This document shows, one piece after another, positions 1,690-28,659 of a stretch of 64,000 nucleotides of DNA. The notes below the pieces were generated by a model. That model worked only from the letters and a program-made list of their open reading frames with translations. It did not search any database and had not been told where the DNA came from. This DNA is from a virus (taxonomy: Duplodnaviria; Caudoviricetes), in IMG/VR virus record IMGVR_UViG_3300005719_000002, positions 1 through 64,000 of that record. One strand, written 5' to 3'. Every line of letters begins with the position of its first letter. The first letter of the stretch is position 1. The position numbers and the translations under genes are program-made.

Positions 1690-2253
1690 ATGTCACTTAT
1701 CGTACAACTCGTTGAAGACCAAATCGTTACTCTGAAAACCAGTTTGGGCGGCATTCGGATTAAACTCAAAGCCGGTCATCCGGTGGACTTTGTGGATGCG
1801 GTAGCAACCGGGCTGCATCATTCGGTAAACGATGTCGTAGCGGAGCAGATGGCTGCGATTGACCGGAACTTTCTCAGGGTCAATCTCGGCAACCTCCAAC
1901 AGACATTCGTGGACACTGACGGCAAGCATTATTCAGTGACCTACGGCCCGAATGGTGAGGCAACGTACACTTCGCAGACCAGCGCAAGTGCTTCTCCGTC
2001 GTTGAGTCCGTCGGGATCGATTTCCCCGTCGGCTTCAACCTCGATTAGTCCTTCGGGAAGTCTGTCGCCTTCGGCGTCAACGTCAATCTCTCCGAGCGGT
2101 TCTTTGTCCCCCTCGGCGTCAGTTTCACGTTCGCCGTCGCCGTCACTGTCACCTTCGGCTTCAACCTCGATTTCGCCGTCGGCCAGTGCGAGTTCGACCC
2201 TTTCGCCATCCGGCTCGATCAGTCCTTCAGCTTCAGCTTCTCCATCGCCATAA
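1690..2253 (+). CDS. Putative virion protein with C-terminal SPSAS repeat tail
   Basis: About 95 aa globular N-terminus then SPSxS[LIV] repeats ending SASPSP. Confidence 0.8.
   Translation: MSLIVQLVEDQIVTLKTSLGGIRIKLKAGHPVDFVDAVATGLHHSVNDVVAEQMAAIDRNFLRVNLGNLQQTFVDTDGKHYSVTYGPNGEATYTSQTSASASPSLSPSGSISPSASTSISPSGSLSPSASTSISPSGSLSPSASVSRSPSPSLSPSASTSISPSASASSTLSPSGSISPSASASPSP
1975..2250 (+). repeat. SPSAS-coding degenerate hexapeptide repeat tract 1
   Basis: Protein-level tandem repeat, codon-diversified. Confidence 0.9.
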
Positions 2254-2263
2254 GGAGGGCTAA

Positions 2264-2995
2264 GTGGACTGTTCGTCGCTGGCGCAACTGGTTACAGACA
2301 CGCTTAACGGTCTGGGGAATCCCGACGTTAAGTATTGCACCGTGGAAGACGCGGCCAGGGCTGTCGTTCATTCGATAGCCCTGCTCAAACAGTCCGCGTC
2401 TTTCTCACGACAAAACCTCGAAATCCTTAACTACGAGTGGGAGGCATCTGCGCGGGAGGAACAACTTCTCGCTCTGGATGCCTGCCTGCCTTTATGGGTG
2501 GAGAGAAAGGTGGATCAGGACTACTGGCGGTTCGTGCCCACCTGTAACCTGTCTGTCCTTGAGGACGCGCGCATGAGAGGCGACTTTCGCTGTGCGTTCT
2601 TTTCAGAAGACGGCGTACTCAAGGTACGGTTCAGTTACCTGCCTACCGACCTTGCATTTCGCACCCATCGGTTGCGGTACGAACCGTCCCTGTTCAACGC
2701 TGAGACCTTCAGCGACATCCTGCTGGATAGTCAGGGCACAGGAATTAGTTCGGCGTTCTTTCCGCTGGTGTCGGCGCTGGCTGAGCTTGAACTAATCCCC
2801 ACCATGAAAATCAAGGCCGCGCAGGAACCCAACCCGAATGTAATTCTAATCAACGCATGGACGGATCGGCAGGACTATCTGGCTATCAAAGCCGCCGAAT
2901 GGCACAGACGTTACCGCCAATGGGCGTTTGGTGAACGGAGTGGGATTCGTGGGCGGCGCAGGCGTTCTCTGGTGGCGAAAGGGATTGGAATATGA
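2264..2995 (+). CDS. Putative head-tail adaptor/ring-like protein
   Basis: AAGGAG SD with GTG start; size and position ahead of ring paralogues and nozzle gene. Confidence 0.5.
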   Translation: MDCSSLAQLVTDTLNGLGNPDVKYCTVEDAARAVVHSIALLKQSASFSRQNLEILNYEWEASAREEQLLALDACLPLWVERKVDQDYWRFVPTCNLSVLEDARMRGDFRCAFFSEDGVLKVRFSYLPTDLAFRTHRLRYEPSLFNAETFSDILLDSQGTGISSAFFPLVSALAELELIPTMKIKAAQEPNPNVILINAWTDRQDYLAIKAAEWHRRYRQWAFGERSGIRGRRRRSLVAKGIGI

Positions 2996-3348
2996 ACGAA
3001 AACACTTCTCAAAGAGTCCCGTTTGGGCGTCCGTCGTGCAAGCGGTACATCGCCTTGCTTACCCAGTCGGGTACTGATGCGCCCGTAGCGACGGTGCTGG
3101 AAAATACCCTGGGTGACATTGCGTGGACGTACAGCACCGTGGGGGTCTACGTCGGCACCCTCGCCGGTGCGTTCCCAGCGGATAAGGTGCTGTGCTTTGT
3201 AGGCGGCTTAGCTTCTGCGGCGGCAGATCGCACTGGGCGATGCGTGCGAACAGATGCCGACACAATCACTCTGACAACTTCAGAAAACACCGCAGCCGCC
3301 AATGCGCTGCTTATCGGCGACCCGATTGAAATTCGTGTTTACGACTAA
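2992..3348 (+). CDS. Conserved phage structural-region protein (YIALLTQSGTDAPVATVLENTLG motif)
   Basis: Motif recognised from uncharacterised phage proteins; ATGA overlap with upstream gene. Confidence 0.6.
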   Translation: MNENTSQRVPFGRPSCKRYIALLTQSGTDAPVATVLENTLGDIAWTYSTVGVYVGTLAGAFPADKVLCFVGGLASAAADRTGRCVRTDADTITLTTSENTAAANALLIGDPIEIRVYD

Positions 3349-4001
3349 TGGGCACAGTAGACGAGAACATTGTCAAACAGCGCGTGGGCGCGATTCTTTT
3401 TATCAACCGCCTTGACTCTTATTCAGGCACGGCCAGCGGCTCAAACTCTCGCTACCAGTCGAACGACGAAATTACCGACACGATCCGCGAGGTGGACGCC
3501 TTGCTATGTCAGGCGCGCATGTCCACCACGGGCGACCCTTACCGCTCAAACTGGATGCAAGTCACAGGGTCACTGGCGAGCGGAGATCGCATTCCAGCGT
3601 TTGTCGGCGTCTTGGGTGATATCGATGTGAAGAATGGCAGCGCATGGGCACCTGCGCGCTACGCAGCCTCGCGTGCAGACGTGATCGAAATGCGGCGCAA
3701 CCCTGCGCTTTACCCCAACGTGAACGATTGGGTGGCTGTGGAGGATGGGCGAATATTCCACAATGCCGAAGCAGCCCGTGCGCACTACCCAAACTTTGAG
3801 AAGCGGCAGGAGTGTCAATCACCCGATGTCGATGAGTCGGCTTTGGTGTACGGCACGGTGGCATCGCTGGCAAAGGATGGCTCAGTAACCCCTGAAGTGT
3901 TTGAAGCCTCAGGGCGATACTTTCAGGCTTACCTTGCGATGATTAAAGGTGAACCAGCGGTACTGCCCGACGTGGCGAGGTTTGAAACCAATGTTCGATA
4001 A
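3348..4001 (+). CDS. Putative tail ring/adaptor protein (divergent paralogue)
   Basis: TAATG coupling; about 200 aa; position in ring gene run. Confidence 0.5.
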   Translation: MGTVDENIVKQRVGAILFINRLDSYSGTASGSNSRYQSNDEITDTIREVDALLCQARMSTTGDPYRSNWMQVTGSLASGDRIPAFVGVLGDIDVKNGSAWAPARYAASRADVIEMRRNPALYPNVNDWVAVEDGRIFHNAEAARAHYPNFEKRQECQSPDVDESALVYGTVASLAKDGSVTPEVFEASGRYFQAYLAMIKGEPAVLPDVARFETNVR

Positions 4002-4557
4002 CGATGAACAGGTTGCGGTAATAGCCCGACGGAGACTTGGCGCTCCACCTGAGGCTGTCTACGCACTCCAACCGCTTGTCGGCCAAGCCCTGTCCAGTCT
4101 CGCGCACAAGGTAGCCCGCAGTGACAACTTTGTTGAATTGCGCAAAGAGCAAGCGATTACCTGTACTGCTGGAGTAGTTACACTCACCGACACGTCGTTA
4201 CTACTCGACATGCTGGACAAGACCAGCACGCTGATACTGAACGGCAAAGAAGCAAAGTGGGTGGCGCGGTTTGACGACCTGAGGGCAAAGTTACCAACCG
4301 ATATTTACTGGGCGGCACTAAGAGGACGGAAAATACTGGTCAAGGACATCGCTACTGGGAATCTGGGGACAGCCTCGGTGTTTGGATTACTGGAAGCTAG
4401 TTACAGTCCTAAACTCTCAGAGTTGCCCGATGCCCTGAATGAAGACTTGATCGATGAAGTGGTGCGGATGGCGCAATCCCGCACCGACACTGCCGCGCAA
4501 GACATTGAAGGAAAGCAGAGTGACATAAACAATGTCCGTTTCGTCCCTAACGACTGA
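3991..4557 (+). CDS. Putative tail ring/adaptor protein, paralogue 1
   Basis: Probable start ATG 3991; shares ALxxLAxxV, GxxxL, LLLD, W...G..L..K and SY.P.L..LP..L...LID.V blocks with the next two genes. Confidence 0.6.
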   Translation: MFDNDEQVAVIARRRLGAPPEAVYALQPLVGQALSSLAHKVARSDNFVELRKEQAITCTAGVVTLTDTSLLLDMLDKTSTLILNGKEAKWVARFDDLRAKLPTDIYWAALRGRKILVKDIATGNLGTASVFGLLEASYSPKLSELPDALNEDLIDEVVRMAQSRTDTAAQDIEGKQSDINNVRFVPND

Positions 4558-5143: not shown

Positions 5144-5144
5144 T

Positions 5145-5714: not shown

Positions 5715-6294
5715 TCCGCAGGTCCTGGAACAAGCCGAGCAGATGCGCGCTGACTTGATACAGCGGGCGAATAGTCCATTTGCGCGCATGTCGCCTCAGG
5801 AGCAGACCAGAGCGCGGGCGTTCAAGATTTCCGAGGAGTTACAGAACGACCTCGACATCATCTCGGAGCAGATAGCGAGAGGTGAGGCAACCCATGAACT
5901 GAAAGCCGCGCAATTCACCATCGCATCGCAACTGGCCGAGCAGTTGGCAATCACAGGTAATTACGAACGTGCCTATGAAATCGATCCGCGCGAAGAGTAT
6001 CGGGCTGAGTACCGAGGGATTCTGGAAGCAATCAACCGTGACGATGAAGAGTCCTGTGGCTGTCCGCCGGGACGTACCTTCGTCAAAGCCGATGTGTTCT
6101 CTCTGAAACACGGTAGGACGGTGACGTTGATTAAGTGCCAGTGCGGATATCTCAACGCACGCCCAATTACCGCTGAACTAAGCAAACAGAGAGAGCACCG
6201 GGCAAAGGCGCAGAGTTTAGTAGGTGACCTTTCCCCAGCGGATGCGGCAGAGAGACTGAGAGCAATCGGACACACGACAAAACAACTATCTTGA
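5680..6294 (+). CDS. Hypothetical helical protein with C-terminal Cys motifs (CGC...CQCG)
   Basis: ORF fills the gap between ring genes and nozzle gene; exact start uncertain. Confidence 0.65.
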   Translation: MDELPDSLKISNPQVLEQAEQMRADLIQRANSPFARMSPQEQTRARAFKISEELQNDLDIISEQIARGEATHELKAAQFTIASQLAEQLAITGNYERAYEIDPREEYRAEYRGILEAINRDDEESCGCPPGRTFVKADVFSLKHGRTVTLIKCQCGYLNARPITAELSKQREHRAKAQSLVGDLSPADAAERLRAIGHTTKQLS

Positions 6295-8354
6295 GGCGCA
6301 CCTCCCTACTTGAGCACGAATTCACTTCCGGCCTGCAAGTCCCTTTTAATCCGCTGGCTGGAGGTAAAGGACTGGCTGATGGTTCGCGTAATCTCCTGCG
6401 ATTGCCGGGAGGGTTTCAGGTCTGGAAAGGGCTGTCGTCATTTGGAGCAAACACCGGTTCCCGCCTGATGCGCAATGTGGGTGGGACTTGGGGCGGGCTA
6501 AAGGACATTGGAAGCCTGCAAGCCAAGGGAAGCCTGTTTCAAGACATTGGTAGATCGCTGTGGTTTATTGGTGCGGGGCAAGTTTCGATTGAAGGTGCTG
6601 ACCTTGTTGGTATTACCGCTTCAACTTCTCTCAAGGTTTCGCTCTCGGTTAACGGAGCTTATAGCGCAGCTACTACTTACGTTGCGGGGCTACCGCAACC
6701 GTCTGCGCCGGATATTGGTATTCCTGCGTCTATTGGCACGGGACTAACCGGAAACATCAAAGGCCCGGTCAGCACAAAGATTGCTCGGTTACGTCTGTCC
6801 ACGGGTGCGCGCTCGGTCTCATCTCCTACCTCGGCGGTGGCCGATCCGCAGAACCAAACGGTCAGGGTGACTTTCCCGCTACCCTCCACCGGGCAGGACT
6901 ACTGGGCGGTGTTCTTTACCCAGTCAGGCTTTGGCGGGGTTGGGCTTCATTACCGCGCACCGTTCAATGGCGCATTGGACATTCCTGAATCCCTCGTGGC
7001 CGCAAGTTCAGTAGACGGCATCCCTCGCTCACTGGAGTTCGACTTCAAAGATGGCGACCTAATCCCTGAGGTTGCTTACATTGACGACTACGTACCACCC
7101 GCCGGAACCCATGCGGTGCGATTGGAAAATGTCATGGTGGTGCTGGGTGCGTATGCCGACTCAACCTCTCCAGTGAGCAGCACCAACCCCGGTACGGTCG
7201 GTGCGGTGTCGCTACCCAATTACTACGAATCCTACAAGCCTCGACACTTGGTGTACTTCCCTGAGCAGATCGTGGACGTGATGGCACGCCCCACTGACCA
7301 GTTTGCTTATGTCGGTCATCGTGATTGCATTACCGCGCTTCAGTACGTTGGTGTGCAAGACGGGCCAGCAGTGGCCGTGACGATGGTGTCACCCGATATT
7401 GGCATCGCCAAACCGCACAACTGGTGTCAGGTACATGGGCTTCTCTACGTCTTTCCCGCGCAGGGTGGGCCGGTACGCATGAGACGAGACGGCTCGTGGG
7501 ATTACACTTTTGCCGCCGACGTGCGCGCGTTGATGAAAGATTGGTCGGTAGAGGAAACAATAGTCGGTTGGCACCCCGATACGCTGTCCGTGGTCTACAT
7601 GAACAATGGTCAGGGGTTGTCTTTCTCTCTGCAAACAGAAGAGTGGTCGGCCATCTGCAACTTCACCGACGGGGGAGTTTCCGGTACGGCGTTGTCATGC
7701 ACCAGCACCGCAGGACAGTTGGTTGTCTCCATAATCGATCCCAACGGAACACATATCGCTTATGCGTGGCATGAAGGGGCAACCTCAATGCCGATATCCG
7801 TCTTCACCCAATGGCAGAAAAGTCTCAGGCCGATAACGGTCATGGAACTAAGCGCAGGGTTTGAAGCGGATCGTAGTTCCCCGCTGCTCTACTCCGTTCA
7901 TCGCAACCTGAAGATTAAATATGTCGTGGATGGCCGAGTAACCGGTGGGCATCATACGCTGGAGTCTATTGATGCTAAGTGGGCGGCGTCTATTACCGGC
8001 GACATGGTGCTGATCTTTGGCGCAGGTATCGGCGTTGGAGTTGACTACCTGATTGCCCGTGTCACCTACGGCAGCCCAACAGTGGTGATGCTTTCCGATC
8101 CGATTACCGGCGCAACACTGAACACCTTGACCACCGCGCAGGACTGTTTCGTGGTTATTGCTACTCAGATTGGAAGTTATGTGGTTAGTCAAACCGGCTA
8201 CCAGCACACCCCGCCGCTTCAGGATGTGTTCGTGGATGAGTGCCAGAGTTTTGCTATTGGACTGCACCAGTTGACCATGGCAGTCTCGGCAGGGTTCTCC
8301 CATGTCAACGTGCAGGGCACAGGACAAATGACGCCCACGGCTCTATCAACCTAA
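6291..8354 (+). CDS. Putative tail nozzle / DNA-stabilisation protein (T7 gp12 / P22 gp10-like, beta-rich)
   Basis: 687 aa, beta-rich, follows the ring genes; N-terminal F.SGL..PF.P...G.RN pattern typical of this class; assignment by context. Confidence 0.55.
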   Translation: MRRTSLLEHEFTSGLQVPFNPLAGGKGLADGSRNLLRLPGGFQVWKGLSSFGANTGSRLMRNVGGTWGGLKDIGSLQAKGSLFQDIGRSLWFIGAGQVSIEGADLVGITASTSLKVSLSVNGAYSAATTYVAGLPQPSAPDIGIPASIGTGLTGNIKGPVSTKIARLRLSTGARSVSSPTSAVADPQNQTVRVTFPLPSTGQDYWAVFFTQSGFGGVGLHYRAPFNGALDIPESLVAASSVDGIPRSLEFDFKDGDLIPEVAYIDDYVPPAGTHAVRLENVMVVLGAYADSTSPVSSTNPGTVGAVSLPNYYESYKPRHLVYFPEQIVDVMARPTDQFAYVGHRDCITALQYVGVQDGPAVAVTMVSPDIGIAKPHNWCQVHGLLYVFPAQGGPVRMRRDGSWDYTFAADVRALMKDWSVEETIVGWHPDTLSVVYMNNGQGLSFSLQTEEWSAICNFTDGGVSGTALSCTSTAGQLVVSIIDPNGTHIAYAWHEGATSMPISVFTQWQKSLRPITVMELSAGFEADRSSPLLYSVHRNLKIKYVVDGRVTGGHHTLESIDAKWAASITGDMVLIFGAGIGVGVDYLIARVTYGSPTVVMLSDPITGATLNTLTTAQDCFVVIATQIGSYVVSQTGYQHTPPLQDVFVDECQSFAIGLHQLTMAVSAGFSHVNVQGTGQMTPTALST

Positions 8355-10363: not shown

Positions 10364-10373
10364 GAGCTAACCA

Positions 10374-10919
10374 ATGTCCCATAAAGCTAAAGTAGACCCC
10401 GCAGTTCAGCAACAGCAACAAGCGTCTCTTGCAGCAGTGCGCCAACCCAGCGCTGGCGAGCAGTATTTAACCAACGATGCCACAAGCACTTTGGACTACA
10501 TCAAGGCGGGTGACTACACCAAACGTCCGAAGAACCTGTTTTTCAACTTTGCCGACCCTGCGCAGCGCGACCAGAACCGCCGGTTGATGATGAACGCAGG
10601 CGGGCAGGGTGTCTTCGCTTTAGGCTCACCCAGCCCCAACTTGCTCGCCACGCAGAAACAGAACTTAGATGACGAATGGGCGCGCGACTCCGCAGGTCAA
10701 TACGAACAGGACATTTCCAATGCGCAGACGCAAGCGCGAGGAGCGTTGGGTGATGTAGCGGGACTGGCAAACCAGCGTAATCTCGGTGCTCTTGGCGCAA
10801 CCTCAGGCATGTGGGGCCAGTCGCTTCAGGCTGACGCGATGCGTAAACCATGGTGGCAGATACTCATCGAAGGCGCTCAGAGGGGCGCTCAAGCAGCAGC
10901 TATGGGTGCAGGTGGATAA
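10374..10919 (+). CDS. Putative small ejection/pilot protein
   Basis: Q/A/G-rich helical protein with Gly/Ala amphipathic C-terminus ([15 protein letters not shown]), placed after nozzle genes. Confidence 0.5.
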
Positions 10920-10933
10920 GAGGAGAAACCAGC

Positions 10934-14009: not shown

Positions 14010-14807
14010 ATGTTTCAACGTATCAGAGCGGGAGTATCGCAAACGGGAGAAGGTTTTGTCGTCCCCAGCCCCGGCTCGCCTTCGCTTTCACCCTCAGCGA
14101 GTCTCAGCCCTTCAGCCAGCGCCAGCGCGTCTCTTTCACCTTCAGCCAGCCGCTCACCTTCAGCCAGTGTGTCACCGTCAGGCGGGGCGTTGCGCGGCAT
14201 TGTGTTCAACGGCACAAACCAGAATGCTTACCGCTCGCTCTCCGGCTCGCCGTGGAGTTCGATGGGTGCATTCAAAACCATCTTTCGGATGCGCAGCCTG
14301 ACAACTTCAGGTGCGCGCATTTTCCAACTGGGACAGGAGAGTGCTGGTGACGGATTCAAGCTCTCTGAGAATAGCGGACGGTTGGACTTTGTGGAGACGC
14401 GCGAGTCTGCCCAGATTTTCCATACCCCCACCGACCTGACCAACATGGTCGTTAAGGTGCAGTTCGATCCGGCGAACACCCGGTGGACATACGAATCATG
14501 GAAATCGGATGGAACAGGTTACGTTTCCGGCACGGTGGCGATGACCGACGCGAGTAACTACAACATTGACAGCTTCTCGTGCGGCGCGAGCGTCTTTAAC
14601 GCATTCAACGGGGACGCGCACTTTGACTGGGTGGGTATTCAGTCGGGTGTTGATGCGTTAGGGTCGGGCAATTTCCCCGGTGCTGAACCCCCGGCAGGCA
14701 CCTATCTCGCCCTGTGGAAGTTTGACGCTGACGACGGCACCGACTCGTCAGGAAACAGTTTGACGCTTACGTTGCATAATTCACCAACATTTGAGAACAC
14801 ACCATAA
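14010..14807 (+). CDS. LamG/concanavalin-A-like virion protein with N-terminal SPSAS tract
   Basis: SPSAS tract then GIVFNGTNQ... and LWKFDADDGTDSSGNSLTLT, typical LamG terminal strands. Confidence 0.65.
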   Translation: MFQRIRAGVSQTGEGFVVPSPGSPSLSPSASLSPSASASASLSPSASRSPSASVSPSGGALRGIVFNGTNQNAYRSLSGSPWSSMGAFKTIFRMRSLTTSGARIFQLGQESAGDGFKLSENSGRLDFVETRESAQIFHTPTDLTNMVVKVQFDPANTRWTYESWKSDGTGYVSGTVAMTDASNYNIDSFSCGASVFNAFNGDAHFDWVGIQSGVDALGSGNFPGAEPPAGTYLALWKFDADDGTDSSGNSLTLTLHNSPTFENTP

Positions 14808-17080: not shown

Positions 17081-17109
17081 CGCCGTAGCGTACTGAGATA
17101 GAGATGGTT

Positions 17110-17146: not shown

Positions 17147-17152
17147 CATAAA

Positions 17153-19783: not shown

Positions 19784-20730
19784 TGGCCGTATCCCCCTCA
19801 GCCAGTATCAGCCGCAGCCCCAGCCCGTCGGCATCGCGGTCGCCGTCAGCTTCACGCAGCCCTTCAGCCAGTAGATCGCCGTCTGCATCTGTTTCGGCGT
19901 CTCGCAGTCCGTCAGCCAGCCGTTCACCCAGTGCTTCAGTATCAGCAAGCATTTCGCCGTCGGGGAGCGCCAGCGGGTCACTCTCTCCGTCAGGGTCGGC
20001 CAGCACGAGCACTTCACCTTCAGCATCTATTAGCGCATCACAAAGCCCTTCGGGTTCAATATCAGCGTCGCTATCTCCATCCGGCTCGGTGAGCACGAGC
20101 GCGTCACCCTCGGCCTCGGTGAGTGCGTCACCCAGCCCGTCAAGCTCAGTATCCGCGTCACCATCCAGTTCAGCGAGCGCAAGTATCAGCGCTTCGTTAT
20201 CACCAAGCACGTCCAGTAGCGGGAGCGCATCACCATCAGCCTCGGTGTCCCTATCAGCCAGTGCTTCGTCATCTCAAAGCCTATCTCCCAGCGCAAGCGC
20301 ATCGGAAAGTCCGAGTCCCTCGGCTTCTGTAAGCCCATCGAGTAGCATGTCTCGCTCGCTCAGCCCTTCCAGTTCCGTCTCAGAGTCACCCAGCGCCAGT
20401 GAAAGCCCATCCGTATCCGCCAGCCCGTCAGCAGCACCAGTTTCCCCGTCGGTGTCGGTCTCACCTTCCGCCAGTGTTTCCGTTTCTCCATCTCCAAGTC
20501 CGTCGCCCTCTGAAAGCGGCAGCGTCAGTCCAAGTAACAGCCTTAGTAACTCACCGTCCCCGTCAAACGGGCCGTGGTCGCCTTCTTCGTCAATCAGTCC
20601 ATCCAGTTCAAACAGTCCCAGCGTAAGCCCAAGCAGTTCAGTCAGTCCTTCACACGTACATCAGGATTCAGGTTCGTCCTCTATAAGCCCGTCAAGTTCA
20701 TGCAGCCCTTCGCCTAGTTCTTCTCCTGGG
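17767..20730 (+). repeat. SPSAS-coding repeat tracts in the 876 aa and 316 aa ORFs
   Basis: Protein-level tandem repeat interrupted by three GQNVDPFF modules and one gene boundary. Confidence 0.9.
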
Positions 20731-20733
20731 TGA
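19783..20733 (+). CDS. Almost pure Ser/Pro/Ala repeat protein (316 aa)
   Basis: TAATG coupling; SPSxS repeats over nearly the full length with mixed TCN/AGY codons. Confidence 0.7.
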
Positions 20734-20740
20734 AACTCTC

Positions 20741-20772: not shown

Positions 20773-20780
20773 GCTACTCA

Positions 20781-20924
20781 GTGAGTAAAAAACCCGTCAC
20801 CATTCAAACCTTTAGATGCCAATGCGAACGCTGCGGGTATCGGTGGGTGGCAAAGGTCAGAGAACCCAAGCGTTGCCCTAACTGTCATAATCCCAACTGG
20901 AACAGGCGGAAGAAGACGAGATGA
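20781..20924 (+). CDS. 47 aa Zn-ribbon protein (not in ORF track)
   Basis: GTG start, MSKKPVTIQTFRCQCERCGYRW...PKRCPNCHNPNWN; ATGA overlap with the GT gene; paralogue at 40271. Confidence 0.75.
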   Translation: MSKKPVTIQTFRCQCERCGYRWVAKVREPKRCPNCHNPNWNRRKKTR

Positions 20925-21892
20925 TCAAAGGTCGTGTATCAGTACTCATCCCCAGCCGCAAGGAACGCTGGCTGAACCAGACCCTAGCCGATGTGTTCGG
21001 TAAAGCGGCTGGTGATGTCGAAGCGGTCGTGTGCCACGACGGAATTTGGCCGGACGAGTTACCGCCTGAAAACGCAAAGCTCATCCAGTTTCATCCCGGC
21101 AGAAACGTCGGCATGAGAGCGGGAATCAACATGGCTGCGCGCATTGCTCAGGGTGAATACCTAATGAAACTTGACGGTCACTGTCAGTTGGGCGAAGGGT
21201 ATGATGCGATTCTCAAGGCCGATTGTGCGCCGAATTGGGTGATGATTCCACGGCGGTATTCCATTGAGGTCGGCACACCTGAAGAACCGAAATGGGAACT
21301 GCGAACCGATAAGGTGGTTGATTATCACTACCTTTCCTACCCGTTTCTCCGCAAGAACGATATCGCCTGTGGGCTGCATGGGAACATCTGGCATGAACGG
21401 CGCAAGAAGCGTCAGGATATTTTAGTGGATCGTGAAATGTCATCACAGGGGTCGTGCTACTTCGGCCACCGAGACTTCATGGAGAAGGCCATCTTTCCGC
21501 TGGATGACGAATCTTTCGGCACGTTTGCGAGCGAGATGCAGGAAGTTGGTTATCGGGCTTGTTCTAACGGCGGGCAGTTGATGGTCAATAAGAACACCTA
21601 TTACGGCCATGTTCATAAGGGCAAAGCGTGGGGTACGGGGTATAAGTTCAACACGAAAGAATGGGAGAACTGGCAACGGCAGAATAAGAAGGGTCACGAC
21701 CACGCAATCATTCAGCTTCTCTCGAATCGACCGCTGGCCGAGAAGTTAATCAACGAGTTCTGGCCTGTACCCGAATGGCCGGAGAAAAACGGTGGGTGCA
21801 ACTGGGGTAAAGTCTATGCAGACTTTGCCGAATGGAAAGCAGAAACCTACGGCAAGGAACCGCCGATGAGTTGGTTGGAAAAGGGGGCATGA
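20921..21892 (+). CDS. GT-A glycosyltransferase (GT2/GT27 ppGalNAc-T-like)
   Basis: VSVLIPSR, GMRAGIN, YLMKLDGHC (DxH), EMSSQGSCYF...FGTFASEMQEVG...GGQLMVN...GHVHK. Confidence 0.85.
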   Translation: MIKGRVSVLIPSRKERWLNQTLADVFGKAAGDVEAVVCHDGIWPDELPPENAKLIQFHPGRNVGMRAGINMAARIAQGEYLMKLDGHCQLGEGYDAILKADCAPNWVMIPRRYSIEVGTPEEPKWELRTDKVVDYHYLSYPFLRKNDIACGLHGNIWHERRKKRQDILVDREMSSQGSCYFGHRDFMEKAIFPLDDESFGTFASEMQEVGYRACSNGGQLMVNKNTYYGHVHKGKAWGTGYKFNTKEWENWQRQNKKGHDHAIIQLLSNRPLAEKLINEFWPVPEWPEKNGGCNWGKVYADFAEWKAETYGKEPPMSWLEKGA

Positions 21893-21977
21893 TGATTATC
21901 TTCTGGATTTCCCTTGTAGTGGTGGCAATGGCAGTACTTATTTGGCTAGGCAGCAAAACAGCAAAGGAGCAAAATCG

Positions 21978-22250
21978 ATGGCGTTAGACGAAGTAATCGA
22001 CACAGAAGCAGTGGTGAAAAGTTTCTCACCGCGTCCGACAAAGCCGGTGACAATGGACTTTCCTGACGCGATGCGGGAGGTGATCGCGGGGAAGAAGATC
22101 GCTAAGTTGGAGTGGGCGGAGAAGGGCGAGCCGGAGTGCTATGCATTGCTCAACGCCGGAATGCTGCAAATCTTTCGTGGGGCAAGTTTCCATGCGTGGA
22201 ATGTCTCTGATGGGGATTTAGCGGGTGAGGATTACATTGTGGTCAAATGA
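21978..22250 (+). CDS. Tad2-like (DUF2829) anti-defence nucleotide sponge
   Basis: AAGGAG SD with ATG 21978; MDFPDAM...GKKIAKLEW and W.VSDGDLAGEDYIVV match the DUF2829 consensus F..A...L..GKKV.R..W / W.PS..DL.A.DW.IV. Confidence 0.7.
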   Translation: MALDEVIDTEAVVKSFSPRPTKPVTMDFPDAMREVIAGKKIAKLEWAEKGEPECYALLNAGMLQIFRGASFHAWNVSDGDLAGEDYIVVK

Positions 22251-22888
22251 ACCGCACCCTCCAATTCATCGCTGACAAGTTCGGCGTAGACCTGAACGCT
22301 CGGTGCCCTATCGCGCTGCCAATCAGCCGTCATGGGCTAGCCAAGTTGTTTGCTGACTTAGGATTCAAGCACATCGTGGAGATTGGTGTCGAGAAAGGAC
22401 TGTACACAAAAGCCCTTGCCAAATTCAACCCGCAAGCAACCATCTACGCTATCGACGCTTGGCACCCGATCAAAGGCTATCGTGACCACGTAAACCGAGA
22501 CAAGCTCCAGAGGTTTTACGAGATCAGCAAGGAACGTCTCGCACCGTTTCCGAACGTGAAAATCATCCGGCAGCTTTCACTGGATGCGGTGAGGGATTTT
22601 AACGACAAGTCACTGGATGCTGTTTATATCGATGCCGATCACTGTTTTCAGTCAGTTACAAATGACATCTGTGAGTGGGGTAAAAAAGTTAAAGCAGGTG
22701 GCATTGTTGCAGGTCACGACTTTGCCCACTTAAACAAAGGTAATGCCCTGATGCACGTTAAGTATGTCGTTGAGGGCTATACGCGCTGTTACGACATTTA
22801 CCCGTGGTTTCTGACCAATACCGACGAGGAAGAACCGGAAGCGGACAGTCTTAAGACTAATCGAAGTTTCTTGTGGGTTAAGCAGTGA
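22247..22888 (+). CDS. Class I SAM-dependent methyltransferase (Methyltransf_24-like)
   Basis: VEIGVEKG, YAIDAW, LDAVYIDADH, KKVKAGGIVAGHDF. Confidence 0.9.
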   Translation: MNRTLQFIADKFGVDLNARCPIALPISRHGLAKLFADLGFKHIVEIGVEKGLYTKALAKFNPQATIYAIDAWHPIKGYRDHVNRDKLQRFYEISKERLAPFPNVKIIRQLSLDAVRDFNDKSLDAVYIDADHCFQSVTNDICEWGKKVKAGGIVAGHDFAHLNKGNALMHVKYVVEGYTRCYDIYPWFLTNTDEEEPEADSLKTNRSFLWVKQ

Positions 22889-23520
22889 TTGTTGGAGTTC
22901 TTTACGTTACCTCGAACCGAGAGCGCCCTGAATTCGAGGAGAAGATAAAGGCCAGCCTGTTGACCGTTATTGGAGATCGACCCTTGGTGAGCGTATCACA
23001 ACAACCGATAAATTTTGGTCGGAACATCTGCGTGGGTGACATTGGACACTCCTACTACAGCGCCTTCCGGCAAATGGTTGTTGGCGCAGAATCCATGACG
23101 GAGGACTATGTAGCCATTGCCGAGTCCGACCAGCTCTACCCACCCGACTATTTCACTTTTGAGCCAGCCGGAGAAGACCTGTACCTGCATGACAGTGTGT
23201 ATGTAATCAAATCCTTCAAACCCGACCAGTATCAGCAAAAGCGCTGGGGTGACTGGATTTCCGTGGTGAAGCGAGAGTATCTGATTGCCTGCGCCAAAAG
23301 CTACCTTAGCAAAAAGAAGACGCGCGTGTCACTGTTTGGGCTTCATGGGTTGAAAGACGTGAAGCATTGGAAACACGGATTACCCGTGGTGAGCTTCAAG
23401 ACGCGGCAGAATGTCAGTCTTAACACCGAGACATTAGTGGACACGGGCGAGGTAGAAGCGGTCGCAGAACTGCCTTACTGGGGTAAGGCTCGCGATCTGT
23501 TTAGGAAGTACGTGAAATGA
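22885..23520 (+). CDS. GT-A-like protein, ExD family paralogue A
   Basis: LVSVSQQPINFG.NI.VG, YVAIAESDQLYPPDYFTFEP; homologous to 25609 and the C-terminus of 26588. Confidence 0.7.
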   Translation: MIVGVLYVTSNRERPEFEEKIKASLLTVIGDRPLVSVSQQPINFGRNICVGDIGHSYYSAFRQMVVGAESMTEDYVAIAESDQLYPPDYFTFEPAGEDLYLHDSVYVIKSFKPDQYQQKRWGDWISVVKREYLIACAKSYLSKKKTRVSLFGLHGLKDVKHWKHGLPVVSFKTRQNVSLNTETLVDTGEVEAVAELPYWGKARDLFRKYVK

Positions 23521-24191
23521 AGGTGTGCGTAATCAGCGCCTCGCTTGGTAACTACGATGTCGAACATCCGTGGGCAGAGCAAATTGTTCCTGATGGCGTC
23601 GAAGTAGAAATCCACCGGCTCAACGATTCTAATTTCCCGCCACGCCATAAAGCCATGACGCCTGCGTTACAGTGCGGGATACCGAAATGGCACGGTTACG
23701 AAATGTTTCCTGGTTTCGACTGGTATCTCTGGATAGACGCGAGTTGCGCGCTCACCAGAGGCAACGAAGTGCATCTGTGGCTGTGTGAAGCCGATGCGTT
23801 CAACTTGGCAGGTTACTACGACATCGCACTGTTCAAACACCCTGAGCGGAAGACTATTCAGCAAGAGTATGAATTTATCAAGGAAAAGATGGCGACGGGC
23901 AACAAGTATCTCTGTTCGCGATATGAAGGTGAATGGCTAGACGAGCAATACGAGTACGTGGCTGATATCGCTTATTATCCAGCGTTCTATGCGTCTACTG
24001 CTTTCATCTACAACCCAACGCCGCTAATTCGCAACGCGTTCAAAGAGGTTGCGTGGCAAAAATACCGCTTCATGCTGCACGATCAACTTGCCCTTGCTTA
24101 TGCACTTCGAGAACACGGGCATAGTATCAAGGTAATCAATCAGGATTATCAAAAGTCGGGGTTGATGGAGTTTGTGAGGAGTAAGAAGTAA
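23517..24191 (+). CDS. DUF616-like (TOD1/MUCI70-type) glycosyltransferase
   Basis: VISASLGNYD, DWYLWIDAS, ALFKHPER.TI.QE, HDQLALAYA. Confidence 0.75.
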   Translation: MKVCVISASLGNYDVEHPWAEQIVPDGVEVEIHRLNDSNFPPRHKAMTPALQCGIPKWHGYEMFPGFDWYLWIDASCALTRGNEVHLWLCEADAFNLAGYYDIALFKHPERKTIQQEYEFIKEKMATGNKYLCSRYEGEWLDEQYEYVADIAYYPAFYASTAFIYNPTPLIRNAFKEVAWQKYRFMLHDQLALAYALREHGHSIKVINQDYQKSGLMEFVRSKK

Positions 24192-24194
24192 CTC

Positions 24195-25397
24195 ATGCCC
24201 AATACCATCATCTTAGGAGCGGGCTTCAGTGGCCTTGCTACCGCGATCACGTCAGGTGGGACGGTCTATGAGGCAACGGATTCACCGGGCGGTCTGGGTG
24301 CGTCCTACGAAATCAACGGTTTCCGCTTTGAGCGCGGCGGGGGGCACTGGTTGTTCGGCGGCGACCCGATGGTAACGGCGTTTATCCAAGGACTCTGCGA
24401 CATTAAGCGGTACGAGCGCAAGTCGTCCATTTATTTTCCCGATGAGGACAAGTTCTACCCCTACCCAATTCAGTCCACCCCTGAGTTCGCGAGCGTCATC
24501 AGTCAGGAGACAGGCGGTGAGTACGGTCAACCCATCGTGACCATAAAAGACGACTTGCGGCATCGGTTCGGCACGACCATGTGTGAGAAGTTTTTCTTTC
24601 CATTCAACGACCTCTATACCGCAGGACTCTACGACAAGGTTGCTCCGCAGGACGCTTACAAAAGTCCGCCGATTGGCAACAAGGGCTACAACGAGACGTT
24701 TATCTATCCGGTGCAGGGGTTGGGGCATTTGGCACGTCGCATGGCCGCACGGTGTGAGGTGAGGTTCAACAAGCGAGCAAAGTGGATTGATACCAGAGAG
24801 AAGATGGTTCATTTCGAGGATGATACCTGTCAAGGGTATGGCAAGTTAGTTTCCACGTTGCCGCTGAACCGCATGATGGTGATGACAGGATTGCAACCAG
24901 ACAATGACGCCAGCGATCCTGCTGTATCGGTTGCTGTGTATAACATCGCTGCTAAAAGAGGTAAAAACTGTCCTAGTGACCAATGGGTTTACACGCCGAA
25001 TAGTGATGCGGGTTTTCATCGAGTCGGGTTCTATAGCAACGTGGATAAGATACTTGCTCCGTTTGGCAAGCAAGACACCCATGTAAGTATGTACGTTGAA
25101 TCTGCGCACAAATACGATCCGCACGCCAGCAATGGCTTAGTAAGTGAGTGGTCAAATGAAAGCGCCGTAATTTGGACGCTTCAGGAGTGGGGCTGGATAG
25201 AAGATACCGAGGTAGTAGATCGTACTGACGTAGAAATCGCCTACACCTACTGCCGACCGGAAAGCACATGGCGAGAGGATGCGATTGCGTTGCTCAAGCA
25301 GCACGACATCACCTGTGTTGGGCGATTTGCCGAGTGGCGGTTTTGCGGAATCGTTGAGTCTATGCGGAGAGGGTTTGAAGCGGGGGTAAATTTATGA
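24195..25397 (+). CDS. FAD-dependent oxidoreductase, UDP-galactopyranose mutase-like
   Basis: IILGAGFSGL, E...PGGL..S...GFRFE.GGGHW, YPIQ, GRFAEWRF. Confidence 0.75.
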   Translation: MPNTIILGAGFSGLATAITSGGTVYEATDSPGGLGASYEINGFRFERGGGHWLFGGDPMVTAFIQGLCDIKRYERKSSIYFPDEDKFYPYPIQSTPEFASVISQETGGEYGQPIVTIKDDLRHRFGTTMCEKFFFPFNDLYTAGLYDKVAPQDAYKSPPIGNKGYNETFIYPVQGLGHLARRMAARCEVRFNKRAKWIDTREKMVHFEDDTCQGYGKLVSTLPLNRMMVMTGLQPDNDASDPAVSVAVYNIAAKRGKNCPSDQWVYTPNSDAGFHRVGFYSNVDKILAPFGKQDTHVSMYVESAHKYDPHASNGLVSEWSNESAVIWTLQEWGWIEDTEVVDRTDVEIAYTYCRPESTWREDAIALLKQHDITCVGRFAEWRFCGIVESMRRGFEAGVNL

Positions 25398-25618
25398 TTC
25401 CTATAATAGTACACATCAACGCTGGGCATGAATTTTGCGATGACGAAGAAAGGCGATGTCACTTTTACAAGTCTAGCGACATATCGATGGCTTCTCAGTG
25501 TGATGCCCATTGCAAATTGTTCGCTGTGGACTTGCGAGAGGTGTTCAATGAGAGGGGTCAAATCCTGCACGCCAAACGCCACGATTTGTGTGTCATCGCT
25601 GAAAAGTTATGTCCCTAG
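25394..25618 (+). CDS. Small Cys/His-rich hypothetical protein
   Basis: ATGA overlap; 74 aa. Confidence 0.55.
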   Translation: MIPIIVHINAGHEFCDDEERRCHFYKSSDISMASQCDAHCKLFAVDLREVFNERGQILHAKRHDLCVIAEKLCP

Positions 25619-26304
25619 CTATCCTATTCTACAGTGCTAACCAAAAGCCCGAACCTTTCGCCTCCAAGGTGCGCGCATCTCTACTCGACACAATAGGCGA
25701 CCTGCCGCTCGTCTCCGTCACGCAAGGCGAATTAGACTTCGGCCAAAACATCAACGTCGGACAAATCGGTGCGTCCACCTACAACTGCTACAAGCAAATT
25801 CTTATTGGGGCGCAAGCGGCCACCACGCGGTTCATCGCCTGTGCCGAGGACGACGTTCTCAGCCCTGTCGAACATTACCAGTTTCGCCCTCCCCGCGACG
25901 ACACTTTCTACTACGATAAAAACCGCTGGTGGGTGGAGCTAAACGACCGGAAGCCTCGTTACCGCTGGCGCAACCGCACGGTAATGTCCACCTGTGTCTG
26001 CAACCGTGAATTGTTCATCGAATGGGCAGAGAGGCTGTTTAAGAAGTTCCCCAAGGAACCGACTAGGGAGGGGATGACGGGCTGGGCGGAGCCGGGAAGG
26101 TACGAAACCTACCTCAAACTTCCGCAGGTAAAGATTAGCTTTTTCAGCAGTCAATACCCAATGCTGACGTTTAACACCAAGCCGTCTCTGGGTGGTGTTA
26201 GAAGGCCGCAGTCAACTGACACGACCTGTAACTACTTAGAACCTTGGGGATTCGCCAGTGACGTTTGGGAGAAATATATAGCCAGTGGGGCTGAAAGCGG
26301 CTAG
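25609..26304 (+). CDS. GT-A-like protein, ExD family paralogue B
   Basis: LVSVTQGELDFGQNINVG, FIACAEDDVLSPVEHYQFRPPRDDTFYY. Confidence 0.7.
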   Translation: MSLAILFYSANQKPEPFASKVRASLLDTIGDLPLVSVTQGELDFGQNINVGQIGASTYNCYKQILIGAQAATTRFIACAEDDVLSPVEHYQFRPPRDDTFYYDKNRWWVELNDRKPRYRWRNRTVMSTCVCNRELFIEWAERLFKKFPKEPTREGMTGWAEPGRYETYLKLPQVKISFFSSQYPMLTFNTKPSLGGVRRPQSTDTTCNYLEPWGFASDVWEKYIASGAESG

Positions 26305-26347
26305 AATGTCCTGACAACTGAATAGGCCACATCCCCAGAGGATCAAC

Positions 26348-26393
26348 CACCGTTTAGTTTCGAGTTATCGCAACTTGAAATTGGCGGTGTTTT
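26348..26393 (+). terminator. Long imperfect hairpin followed by a T-tract
   Basis: CACCG..TTTCGAGTT-ATCGC-AACTTGAAA..CGGTG then TTTT. Confidence 0.45.
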
Positions 26394-26409
26394 CATTTAG
26401 GAGGGGCTT

Positions 26410-26577
26410 ATGTTCATAACGCAATGTGTAGGCCGTCGCAAGCTGGAATGGCGGTTACAAGCCGACGGGAGTTACAGGGTAGACATTAAGCTGAAGGATA
26501 CCCGATTAGCCACTCTGATCATCGACAAGGCCGAAGCGAGCAAACTGCGCGCTCGAATGGTGAAGCATTCGAAGTAG
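26410..26577 (+). CDS. 55 aa hypothetical protein (not in ORF track)
   Basis: AGGAGG SD, ATG 26410, TAG 26575-26577. Confidence 0.6.
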   Translation: MFITQCVGRRKLEWRLQADGSYRVDIKLKDTRLATLIIDKAEASKLRARMVKHSK

Positions 26578-26587
26578 GAGGTAACTT

Positions 26588-28294
26588 ATTCCTTACGACC
26601 TCTCGGTTTTGATCCCCGCTCGTAACGAGGAATTCCTCGCCCGTACCGTTGAAGGCGTTCTTGCTGCGCGGGAAGCAAAAACCCAAGTTTGCGTGATCGC
26701 GGACGGCGCTTGGCCTGACCCTCCGCTCCCTGTTCATCCTGACGTAACAATCATTCATCACTCGAAGTCTATTGGGCAACGGGCAGCTTGCAATGAAGGT
26801 GCGCGGCTGTCTGAAGCCAAGTACATAATGAAGCTGGATGCGCACTGCATCATGGATCAGGGATTTGACCGGAAGCTGATTGAGGACGCCCAGCCCGACT
26901 GGACGGTCATTCCCAGCCAGTACAACCTCTACGCCTTCGACCGTCTCTGCAAAGACTGTGGACACGAAGCCTACCAAGGCCCAACGGTATGCGAGAAGTG
27001 CGGCTCGAAGAACGTGGAGAAAGTGATCGTGTGGCAACCGCGCGATGGGCGGGTAATTAACGGCAAGAACATGGGCAAGCGGCTTACCGAAGCGTGGGCG
27101 TTTGATCGCGAGTTGCACTTTCAGTATCACGGGGAAATAGCCGCAAGACAGCAAGGCGATCTAATTGAAACCATGTCGTTACTGGGAGCCTGCTGGTTTC
27201 TGGAACGAGAACGGTATTGGGAGTTGGGCGGCAGCGACGAGGAGCATGGCTCATGGGGACAGCAAGGCACGGAGATAGCCTGCAAGTCATGGCTGTCGGG
27301 TGGGAAGGTAATCGTTAACCGCAAGACATGGTTTGCCCATATGTTCCGCACTCAAGGCGGCGACTTCGGGTTTCCATACCCGAACACTTCGGTTCACAAA
27401 GCGCGGGAACACTCCAAGTGGCTGTGGAAGGGCAACAACTGGCCGCTGGCTAAGTATCCCCTATCGTGGCTGGTGGAGAGGTTCATGCCGCTGGGGTCGT
27501 GGTGGAGCCAGGAAGACCTTGACCAGCTTAAAGCGGTAGAGAAGGGTAAAGCGGTAGAGAAGGGCAAAGCGGTGGATGTCCGGCCTCCAACCAAGGGAAT
27601 CGTCTACTACTCCCATAACCAGCTTGATCCGGTCGTCGCCCAGACCGCCAGAGACGTGCTCAAGCGCGCGGTTAACGGGCACAAGATTGTTTCAGTTACA
27701 CTGGAGCCGGTAGACCTTGGGCTGAATGTCGTTCTCCGCGATAAGCAGAAGGGTTATCTAACCTATCTTGAGCAGATTCTCAAGGGACTACAGACATCGA
27801 CAGCGGACTCCTGCTGGCTGGTTGAGCATGATTGCCTCTACCCACCTGAGCATTTTGCTTTCACCCCGCCACGAGATGATCGCTATTACTACAACACCAA
27901 TGTCGTGAAGGTGCGCTGTTCGGATGGTCACGTGCTGAAGTATTCCGGCTGCTTGCAGGTGTCGGGGATGTGTGCCAGCCGCCAACTGCTCATCCAGCAC
28001 TACGAGAAGCGCATTGCGCGGTTTCACGCAGACGGTGACAAGTATGATCGTCATATCGGGTACGAGCCGGGAATGCGCCCACCGCCACGAGGGATTGACG
28101 ATTACGGATATGAGACGTGGACTTCCACAAAGCCGATTGTTGATTTGCGTGTCGAGGGAACAATGTCGAAGTCGAGGTGGACGATTGACGAGTTTCGCAA
28201 CAAGCCGAAAGAATGGTGGGAGGGTGATTATGTTGAGGGGTGGGGGCCGACCAAAGGCCGCGTATCGGAATTCCTTCAGGACTTGAGAGCATGA
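26588..28294 (+). CDS. Two-domain glycosyltransferase: ppGalNAc-T-like GT-A with Zn-ribbon insert fused to an ExD GT-A; probable ATT start
   Basis: AGGAGGT then ATT giving MPYDLSVLIPARNE; YIMKLDAHC; ELGGSDEEHGSWGQQGTEIACKSWLSGG...AHMFR; second domain WLVEHDCLYPPEHFAFTPPRDD. Confidence 0.85.
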   Translation: MPYDLSVLIPARNEEFLARTVEGVLAAREAKTQVCVIADGAWPDPPLPVHPDVTIIHHSKSIGQRAACNEGARLSEAKYIMKLDAHCIMDQGFDRKLIEDAQPDWTVIPSQYNLYAFDRLCKDCGHEAYQGPTVCEKCGSKNVEKVIVWQPRDGRVINGKNMGKRLTEAWAFDRELHFQYHGEIAARQQGDLIETMSLLGACWFLERERYWELGGSDEEHGSWGQQGTEIACKSWLSGGKVIVNRKTWFAHMFRTQGGDFGFPYPNTSVHKAREHSKWLWKGNNWPLAKYPLSWLVERFMPLGSWWSQEDLDQLKAVEKGKAVEKGKAVDVRPPTKGIVYYSHNQLDPVVAQTARDVLKRAVNGHKIVSVTLEPVDLGLNVVLRDKQKGYLTYLEQILKGLQTSTADSCWLVEHDCLYPPEHFAFTPPRDDRYYYNTNVVKVRCSDGHVLKYSGCLQVSGMCASRQLLIQHYEKRIARFHADGDKYDRHIGYEPGMRPPPRGIDDYGYETWTSTKPIVDLRVEGTMSKSRWTIDEFRNKPKEWWEGDYVEGWGPTKGRVSEFLQDLRA

Positions 28295-28659
28295 ACGTCA
28301 ACGAAAAAGCTGGTTGCACGATCAACGTGGTAATCAAGGATGAGAACAAGCAAGTGGTCATCCCTGATGCCTTTAACTACGCATTGGCAGACAAGGACTC
28401 AGGAATAGTGCTCACTTCAGGTTCCAAGTCCCCGGCCAGTTCGGTAAATATCGCCATCACCCCCAATCAGAACCGTATTCTCGATCAGGGCAAGCCAAGT
28501 GAAACCAGAGTCCTGACAGTGGTAGCGCCGTACGATGGAACCAACCAGGCAACCGGCGAGTACCAGTACAAAGTTGTTAATCTCAAAGGGGTAGATGCGA
28601 ATACGTCCACTTCGCCGTCGGCTTCGGTGTCTCCTTCGGCAAGTCCGTCGGCTGGGTAG
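28291..28659 (+). CDS. Ig-like structural protein with short C-terminal SPSAS tag
   Basis: ATGA overlap at 28291; beta-rich; ends [17 protein letters not shown]. Confidence 0.7.
   Translation: MNVNEKAGCTINVVIKDENKQVVIPDAFNYALADKDSGIVLTSGSKSPASSVNIAITPNQNRILDQGKPSETRVLTVVAPYDGTNQATGEYQYKVVNLKGVDANTSTSPSASVSPSASPSAG

Follow-up and report, generated by a model that had tools for sequence, protein, structure and literature searches.

The stretch analysed here, hereafter the window, comprises the first 64 kb of the virus record IMGVR_UViG_3300005719_000002, a genome of 75,484 bp with direct terminal repeats and a completeness rating of 100%. All plausible genes from position 441 to about 32.5 kb lie on the + strand, forming a late gene run. 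Within this run, the block 1690-28659 holds seven genes whose products carry one and the same serine-rich peptide repeat, together with a cassette of eight co-directional genes, several of them for glycosyltransferases (GTs), located after the all-repeat gene and before the last of the tagged genes (Table 1). Scanning the late run against PHROGs and Pfam gave almost no matches; in PHROGs, most structural and cassette proteins stayed unmatched, with the terminase, the methyltransferase and one Ig-like region as the exceptions. An Atlas search with the 325-aa capsid candidate encoded at 441-1418 returned no match, and blastn of the cassette against deposited phages found none alike at the DNA level. 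The large terminase gene is located at genome positions 66475-68436 (PHROG 38, E 5e-19) and is preceded by the gene of a 1,659-aa protein whose N-terminus carries an SLT lytic transglycosylase domain.

A preliminary description of this DNA had claimed seven repeat-bearing open reading frames (ORFs). All seven exist, are on the + strand and contain an S-P-S-A-S-x repeat. Their tracts add up to 1,383 residues, including 687 Ser and 27 Thr, and SPSAS occurs more than 110 times in the seven ORFs versus 4 times elsewhere in the six-frame translation of the 64 kb. The SPSAS unit as first described needs adjusting, in that an S-P-S-x-S-x core is conserved at related loci whereas Ala is a local preference and not part of that core: the residues found at x across these loci rank as A > V > S > L > P > E > I. 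We refer to runs of this core as SPS tracts. At the DNA level, each Ser position of the repeat draws on all six codons for this residue, TCN and AGY alike, and Pro and Ala are likewise each encoded by the full set of four. Tandem Repeats Finder reported just two short arrays within the 4.1 kb of tract, and the mean DNA identity among 38 SPSAS[LVI] units is 55%. The scrambled codons and the near-absence of a DNA repeat indicate that the periodicity is kept by protein-level selection, not by replication slippage, and the codon scrambling and the Tandem Repeats Finder result rule out DNA slippage or an off-frame artefact as the origin of the repeat. Long antisense ORFs do overlap the tracts, which could be taken to mean that the repeats are not real protein and reflect DNA repeats or off-frame reading; such ORFs are, however, an expected by-product of a stop-poor repeat. 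Moreover, the + frame continues unbroken from LamG and FN3 domains into the tracts, and the same peptide repeat is found at hundreds of loci with different DNA. We therefore give this explanation practically no weight.

The proteins carrying the tracts have different folded parts. The N-terminal 92-aa domain of the 187-aa protein has no family match, and the N-terminal domain of the 800-aa protein has four homologues at other loci, all four (4/4) with tracts. The 265-aa protein resembles phage Laminin_G_3 clusters in the Atlas (feature score 0.95-0.96, TM 0.66-0.70), and part of the 674-aa protein is matched by PHROG 584, a major tail protein family. A conserved hydrophobic motif (..GQNVDPFFI..), some 30 aa in length, occurs three times between the tracts of the 876-aa protein (18104-18187, 18848-18952 and 19016-19117), and its copies could be small folding or oligomerisation knots on a glycosylated stalk. 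Among 64 tract proteins of related phages, Pfam recognised Laminin_G_3 (8), Gly_rich_2 (6), DUF2341 (5), Sipho_Gp37, Phage-tail_3 and Beta_helix, and the named PHROG matches of tract proteins are all virion parts (tail fibre assembly, major or minor tail, baseplate wedge, head, virion structural protein). These family matches support an assignment of the tagged proteins as virion proteins of lectin-like, tail and head types.

The cassette was initially described as 8 kb of GTs, a methyltransferase and a sugar mutase homologue; these components are all present, within a shorter length of 7.4 kb (20921-28294). Its glycosyltransferase content amounts to two domains resembling the catalytic domain of GT27, the family of the polypeptide N-acetylgalactosaminyltransferases (ppGalNAc-Ts), and three further GT-A domains. 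GTa is a paralogue of the N-terminal domain of GTb (24% identity, E 6e-29) and is present at all GT loci compared; it keeps a D-G-H and the later His, its WG motif is diverged and it has no zinc ribbon. The two stand-alone GT-A proteins match each other with a blastp E of 7e-30, and the family of the 231-aa one is common to 81 viral loci and 75 loci from metagenome-assembled genomes (MAGs). The methyltransferase, probably a sugar O-methyltransferase judging from its family, belongs to a family common to 56 viral and 62 MAG GT loci. The Pfam scan of the window copy of the 224-aa protein gave no match. Residues 2-316 of the flavoenzyme match PDB 4dsg with an E of 5e-11, and Aspergillus UDP-galactopyranose mutases with 6e-7. 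The small Tad2-like gene recurs in cassettes of unrelated contigs (L003/L004, the JGI contig of P0076, and 6 viral and 3 MAG loci), and is either a hitch-hiking anti-defence gene or one with a role in the cassette, such as nucleotide binding. The gene order small GT, Tad2-like, methyltransferase, TOD1-like, mutase-like, GT-A, GTb is likewise found on other phage contigs. None of the cassette proteins is covered by an NCBIfam model, and a promoter and terminator scan around the cassette found sites no more numerous than in shuffled sequence.

Table 1. Tagged proteins and cassette genes in the window. Positions of SPS tracts are given in brackets.
Feature	Position (nt)	Strand	Matches
187-aa protein: 92-aa N-terminal domain and free C-terminal 95-aa SPS tail (nt 1966-2250)	1690-2253	+	
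800-aa protein: internal 335-aa SPS tract (nt 11861-12865) between two folded parts	10850-13252	+	
265-aa protein: short N-terminal peptide, 43-aa SPS stalk (nt 14061-14189), LamG/ConA-like jelly roll	14010-14807	+	
674-aa protein: FN3 and Ig-like/FCCH domains, 29-aa C-terminal SPS tag (nt 16731-16817)	14811-16835	+	Pfam fn3, E1_FCCH
876-aa protein: 200-aa N-terminal domain, then four SPS tracts (548 aa)	17153-19783	+	
316-aa protein: SPS-type repeat end to end; start overlaps upstream stop	19783-20733	+	
GTa: 323-aa ppGalNAc-T-like GT-A enzyme	20921-21892	+	Pfam GT2; PDB 6s22 (TgGalNAc-T3), E 0.0029
Tad2-like (DUF2829) small protein	21942-22250	+	Pfam PF11195, 21.6 bits, under cut-off
S-adenosylmethionine-dependent methyltransferase (Methyltransf_24)	22247-22888	+	Pfam, E 1.1e-14
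211-aa stand-alone GT-A domain, paralogue of GTb C-terminal half	22885-23520	+	blastp E 8.5e-15 to GTb residues 330-433
224-aa protein	23517-24191	+	Homologue at another locus (L002): weak TOD1/MUCI70 (plant putative glycosyltransferase) match
400-aa flavoenzyme: eukaryote-type UDP-galactopyranose mutase homologue	24195-25397	+	Pfam NAD_binding_8, Amino_oxidase
231-aa stand-alone GT-A domain, paralogue of GTb C-terminal half	25609-26304	+	blastp E 1.5e-16 to GTb residues 330-488
GTb: two-domain enzyme, ppGalNAc-T-like N-terminal domain and second GT-A	26588-28294	+	
122-aa protein (139 aa from GTG 28240): 20-aa C-terminal SPS tag; ATG overlaps GTb stop	28240/28291-28659	+	

Two of these genes appear to open with an uncommon start codon. 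GTb likely starts at ATT 26588, which follows AGGAGG and a spacer of 6 nt (26575-26610); the first common start is TTG 26609, and the residues gained by the earlier start restore the family consensus DLSVLIP. Similarly, the ORF of the 800-aa protein opens at 10850 when common starts are used, whereas the start at 10934 given in the preliminary description is an ATT with a good ribosome-binding site (GAGGAG, then 8 nt; 10914-10936) and is probably the true one. ORF callers limited to ATG, GTG and TTG thus probably misplace the starts of both proteins.

Using phmmer against the PDB, we found that all matches of GTb at E <= 0.03 are ppGalNAc-Ts (T10 at 6.6e-5, followed by PGANT9, T2, T1, T7 and Toxoplasma T3). 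The alignment spans the DxH motif (LDAHC vs LDSHCE), the Gal/GalNAc-T motif (WGQQGTEIACKSWLSGG vs WGGENLEISFRVWQCGG) and the His-x-Phe-Arg of the catalytic loop, where A-H-M-F-R of GTb aligns with G-H-V/I-F-R. Across 28 homologues of GTb, D77 and H79 of the DxH motif are invariant, as are W216, G217, Q218, G220, E222, K226, W228 and G232 of the Gal/GalNAc-T region, H244, F246 and R247 of the catalytic loop, and an E-H-D triad in the C-terminal half. A zinc ribbon with four Cys, also invariant in these homologues, is inserted in the GT27-like domain (residues 107-137 of 26609-28294); no solved ppGalNAc-T aligns to this insert, and its PDB matches are weak and to zinc-ribbon proteins only. The structural comparison agrees with the sequence. 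An AlphaFold (AF2) model of GTb has a mean confidence (pLDDT) of 88.9, and in a Foldseek search against the PDB all matches listed (ranks 1-47) are ppGalNAc-Ts, with E from 1.6e-14 to 1.4e-11 over about 335 columns. The C-terminal 237 residues, modelled alone (pLDDT 95.6), adopt a second, generic GT-A fold, whose nearest structures are heparosan synthase, WrtF and alpha-1,3-GalT. This second GT-A domain stands at the C-terminus, where the ricin-type lectin domain of GT27 was not found. None of the cassette GTs has an N-terminal membrane segment; GTb and its family consensus open directly at the first strand of the GT-A fold. Taken together, the sequence and the predicted fold support the assignment of these GTs as specifically ppGalNAc-T-like.

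Since the methyltransferase matches a PHROG labelled DNA methyltransferase, and phage GTs often target DNA according to a passage of PMC12619734, we considered whether the cassette glycosylates phage DNA, as the T4 glucosyltransferases and other DNA-hypermodifying GTs do. Pfam scans, which covered part of the genes, found no hydroxymethylase. The GT27-like fold of GTb differs from known DNA GTs, a separate Mom-type gene is located far from the cassette, and the cassette lies among virion genes, with its link to SPS proteins extending to cellular genomes. DNA glycosylation was rejected on the GT27-like fold and the separate Mom-type gene, and we regard it as highly improbable.

The preliminary description had set the co-occurrence of tracts and enzymes as a check; run both ways, it links SPS tracts and the GT in each direction. 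In the forward direction, we searched for strict SPS tracts within 10 kb of the GT at 80 viral and 80 MAG loci. Tracts were found at 68 of the 80 viral loci, always on the GT strand, in 136 different ORFs and with a median of 354 tract residues per locus. They were also found at 55 of the 80 MAG loci, again on the same strand and mostly in one giant protein just downstream of the GT. In the reverse direction, a DNA pattern for SPSAS x4 retrieved more than 120 stretches from IMG/VR, and the whole records were searched with the GT profile; the pattern also caught TPTAT-type and out-of-frame sequence, which served as controls. Among records at least 40% complete, the GT is present in 19 of 21 with true SPSAS repeats versus 0 of 8 controls (Fisher p = 1e-5, uncorrected for relatedness).

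The position and composition of the tracts suggest a role as acceptor. In the 136 tract ORFs of the viral loci, the tract lies between domains in 69, forms a free C-terminal tail in 30 and makes up the entire protein in 9. As free tails and all-repeat proteins (39 of 136) link nothing, an acceptor or bristle fits better than a linker. Every Ser of S-P-S-A-S-x has a Pro at -1, +1 or +3, and Pro is favoured at those positions in the GalNAc-T sequon T/S-P-x-P (bioRxiv 10.1101/2020.06.25.171371). The S-P-S-P-S variant, which is common in relatives, is an exact match to T/S-P-x-P. The portability of the tag, also part of the preliminary description, holds up well: the 136 ORFs carry it N-terminally, C-terminally or internally on unrelated domains, and it comes and goes among homologous proteins. 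For instance, the 122-aa protein has nine homologues encoded just 3' of GTb at other loci, of which two carry the tag and seven do not.

A second case of such coming and going is locus L048 (IMGVR_UViG_3300045391_002080), whose tail genes are 40-66% identical to those of the window phage. Here, a 10.6-kb block with three tract proteins and the cassette (L048:1106-11716) sits between homologues of the window genes 2264-2995 and 3348-4001, which are near-adjacent in the window phage. In addition, the gene at L048:14156-18720 is a homologue of the tract-free window gene 6291-8354 and has SPS tracts inserted exactly at two domain junctions. L048 and the window phage are thus a natural with/without pair. 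Each of the two GT27-like enzymes recurs at more than 155 loci, as does one of the stand-alone GT-A paralogues, and the methyltransferase and the other GT-A paralogue recur at about 120-130 each, whereas the other genes of the window phage are common to almost none of the GT loci, with L048 as the sole locus sharing tail genes. Conversely, GT27-like genes, GT2 domains and SPS tracts are all missing from five phages whose terminases are related to that of the window phage (60-71% identity; four of these genomes are complete, at 70-75 kb). Apart from the terminase, what these phages have in common with the window phage is limited to a portion of the SLT giant and a handful of small genes, which makes them a suggestive control but a weaker one than a true sister genome. 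Lastly, G056 (IMGVR_UViG_3300017963_000104, 44.5 kb) is a complete exception, with two SPS giants at 32.3-39.2 kb and no GT27-like enzyme. Directly upstream of the giants it carries a non-homologous cassette (L206:2595-12280) encoding an 836-aa GT2+TPR+GT4/GT1 protein, four proteins with methyltransferase domains, two GT2s, an epimerase and an RGP/GT75-family protein (the plant UDP-arabinose mutase family; E 1.7e-38). By its domain content, this cassette is a second, independent solution, made of the same kinds of parts from different families.

These comparisons bear on two alternatives. In the first, the tracts are modified by host enzymes or otherwise, e.g. by phosphorylation, and the proximity of the cassette reflects hitch-hiking within one lineage. 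It is true that the evidence for coupling is all correlative and that the counts are uncorrected for relatedness. However, the cassette genes recur at more than 155 loci, almost none of which share other genes of the window phage, the pairing also holds in MAG chromosomes of the candidate phyla radiation (CPR), and the terminase relatives are without both features. The gene comparisons thus support a link between enzyme and tracts that does not depend on shared ancestry, and we judge hitch-hiking to be quite improbable.

In the second alternative, the tracts are unmodified linkers of the polyserine type or entropic bristles, and the target of the cassette is something else, for example a small molecule or the host envelope, the latter in seroconversion or superinfection exclusion. 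Multidomain proteins outside the cell often have Ser/Pro-rich linkers, and the 69 tracts between domains fit such a role; the free tails and all-repeat proteins, which link nothing, do not. It is well established that phages can modify the surface sugars of their hosts with GT2 enzymes (review cited in PMC12619734), and the 12 GT-bearing records that are tract-free would suit another target. On the other hand, the nearest solved relatives of GTb are all protein-serine/threonine transferases, and GTb is without the membrane segment usual in GT2s acting on polysaccharides or lipid-linked substrates. Furthermore, tracts and GT are gained, lost and moved jointly across unrelated genomes, and G056 has a different glycosylation cassette beside its tracts. 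We consider this alternative unlikely, if less so than the other alternatives considered.

We therefore think it probable that the block 1690-28659 is a part of the virion (late) run with a self-contained cytoplasmic module for mucin-type O-glycosylation. In the mechanism we propose, soluble GTb and/or GTa would put the first sugar on serines of the tracts as the virion proteins are made. The other GT-A domains, i.e. the C-terminal half of GTb and the two stand-alone paralogues, would extend the glycan together with the TOD1/MUCI70-like protein, while the UDP-galactopyranose mutase homologue would supply a furanose donor and the methyltransferase would cap the sugars. The tract would act as a portable acceptor, placed at a protein end, between domains or as a whole protein. 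The outcome would be stiff, glycan-covered stalks and bristles on lectin-like tail proteins and on other tail and head proteins. The benefit would most likely be a mix of display of receptor-binding domains, protease resistance or shielding, and adhesion. The sequences establish that the repeats and the enzyme families are present and that the two are coupled and mobile together in genomes; sugar transfer, the sugars used and the selective benefit are what we infer.

Several observations weigh against this proposal. Glycosylation of the tracts is deduced here from genes and models, and the virion role of the 187-, 800-, 876- and 316-aa proteins of the window from gene order and the domains of relatives. 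The motif of GTb reads WGQxGxE instead of WGGE and is further diverged in GTa; with WGGE altered and both the lectin domain and the membrane anchor missing, the donor and acceptor are not readable by homology. Animal ppGalNAc-Ts prefer Thr, whereas the tracts of the window are almost Thr-free (27 Thr vs 687 Ser). The mutase homologue is an inconstant member of the cassette across loci. As for co-occurrence, 12 of the 80 viral GT records are tract-free throughout; all of them are incomplete (7-76%), the one at 76% being 112 kb long. In the reverse direction, 2 of the 21 SPSAS records lack a GT27-like enzyme. Many SPSAS fragments of 5-20 kb are also without the GT, but they are unscorable either way: in the window phage the tracts are spread over 27 kb and the cassette takes up 7 kb, and a fragment with a tract would often miss the cassette.

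The predicted module can be compared with four known systems. It is alike to the GT27 systems (human GalNAc-T2, Drosophila PGANT9, Toxoplasma GalNAc-T3) in having the nearest catalytic fold with the DxH and His-x-Phe-Arg motifs and an alignable, if altered, WG..E motif, predicted acceptors with long Ser/Pro-rich repeats and Pro at -1, +1 or +3 of Ser, and several paralogous initiating enzymes accompanied by elongating GTs. It is unlike them in that the phage GTb is predicted to be soluble and cytoplasmic, has neither the membrane anchor nor the ricin-type lectin domain, and instead contains a zinc-ribbon insert and a fusion to a second GT-A domain. In addition, the predicted acceptors are Ser-only and not Thr-rich, and the system is encoded by phages and CPR bacteria. 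In the mycobacteriophages Che8, Corndog and Myrna, the phages' own GTs decorate virion proteins, with shielding as the proposed function, and the glycans are attached to the C-terminal ends of the subunits of capsid and tail tube (Freeman et al. 2023, Cell Host Microbe 31:1216, as cited in PMC12619734). Both systems have phage-encoded GTs, and here too the phage's own virion proteins are the predicted targets: the GT genes are located in the virion run and are coupled to tagged virion proteins. They differ in that there is no detectable homology (GTb tblastn against 50,697 deposited phages), that here hundreds of repeat residues occur at any position on lectin-like, fibre-like and other proteins, and that the cassette is larger, with six GT domains, the mutase homologue and the methyltransferase.

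The serine-rich repeat glycoproteins of Gram-positive bacteria (GspB, Fap1, SraP) are similar in that dedicated cytoplasmic enzymes are encoded beside the gene of a long Ser-rich, fibre-like surface protein. In contrast, glycosylation is initiated there by a GtfA/GtfB pair of GT4 (GT-B fold) and export is by SecA2/SecY2, and the repeats are SASA/SESA-type dipeptides versus SPSxSx here. A Pfam scan of the cassette revealed no GT4 or other GT-B domain, and both modelled domains of GTb are GT-A; SecA2/SecY2 was absent from the proteins scanned, no whole-genome search having been aimed at it. The chlorovirus PBCV-1 has virus-encoded cytoplasmic capsid glycosylation, with atypical N-linked glycans that include methylated sugars on a folded capsid protein. 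It resembles the present case in its virus-borne cytoplasmic machinery for structural proteins, with methylated sugars predicted here too, and is unlike it in being a eukaryotic virus with N-linked glycans and no repeat acceptor, with enzymes unrelated as far as tested. By analogy, the phage module appears to work like the mucin-type and serine-rich-repeat systems and to serve the virion purpose of the mycobacteriophage system, while belonging to none of them.

The enzyme family is widespread in metagenomes. GTb has thousands of full-length metagenome homologues at about 50% identity, and 295 clusters at E <= 1e-30 in a 50%-identity library. Searching IMG/VR for loci with a single protein gave nothing, whereas an alignment-based profile found them: the GT is present on 457 IMG/VR contigs, a base rate of 1.6e-4 among viral contigs, and on 114 contigs of species-representative MAGs. 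The MAG contigs listed with the GT are mostly labelled Patescibacteria/CPR, with many Gammaproteobacteria. In the set of MAG contigs L210-L289, some are 270-455 kb long and the giant SPS protein is usually encoded just downstream; cellular contigs and binned phages are unsorted in this set. By contrast with the metagenomes, tblastn of GTb against the 50,697 deposited phage records gave no match at E 1e-5, and our literature search found no paper on the repeat or on a GT27-like phage enzyme.

Glycosylation of phage particles by phage enzymes is known from a few mycobacteriophages and tends to be viewed as a curiosity. In the present case, one defined repeat, the putative acceptor, occurs jointly with a defined set of enzymes across hundreds of uncultivated phages as well as ultra-small bacteria, and the enzyme belongs to the same structural family as those that initiate mucin synthesis in animals. 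Should chemical evidence bear out the glycosylation, (SPSxSx)n plus a GT27-like enzyme would be a simple rule for predicting glycosylated virions from metagenomes, and a soluble bacterial-type enzyme with a short portable tag would be at hand for making cytoplasmic mucin-like glycoproteins. It would also provide a new angle on the origin of GT27 and call for a rethink of how phages encounter receptors, proteases, antibodies and mucus. More speculatively, the large and so far uncatalogued clade of soluble GT27-like enzymes of phages and CPR bacteria (the 295 clusters and 457 IMG/VR contigs) might correspond in prokaryotes to the eukaryotic mucin initiators, perhaps even being their origin, and might coat virions and the giant fibres of cell surfaces with true mucin-like brushes that contain furanose and methylated sugars. 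We hold this idea tentatively, with the odds rather against it; if it is true, tailed phages routinely bear a second, glycan-based surface layer that annotation has overlooked.

Two genes of the window outside the late run may be mentioned. A Mom-family protein (Pfam PF25680, E 4.9e-26) is encoded on the - strand at 32679-33443, far from the cassette, and the phage DNA is probably modified via a Mom route separate from the GT cassette, as judged from this family match. At 41389-42597, a ParB-like protein (ParB_N 3.2e-13, HTH_ParB) is encoded, which might reflect a plasmid-like or partitioned lifestyle, or may be a nuclease or regulator of ParB type.

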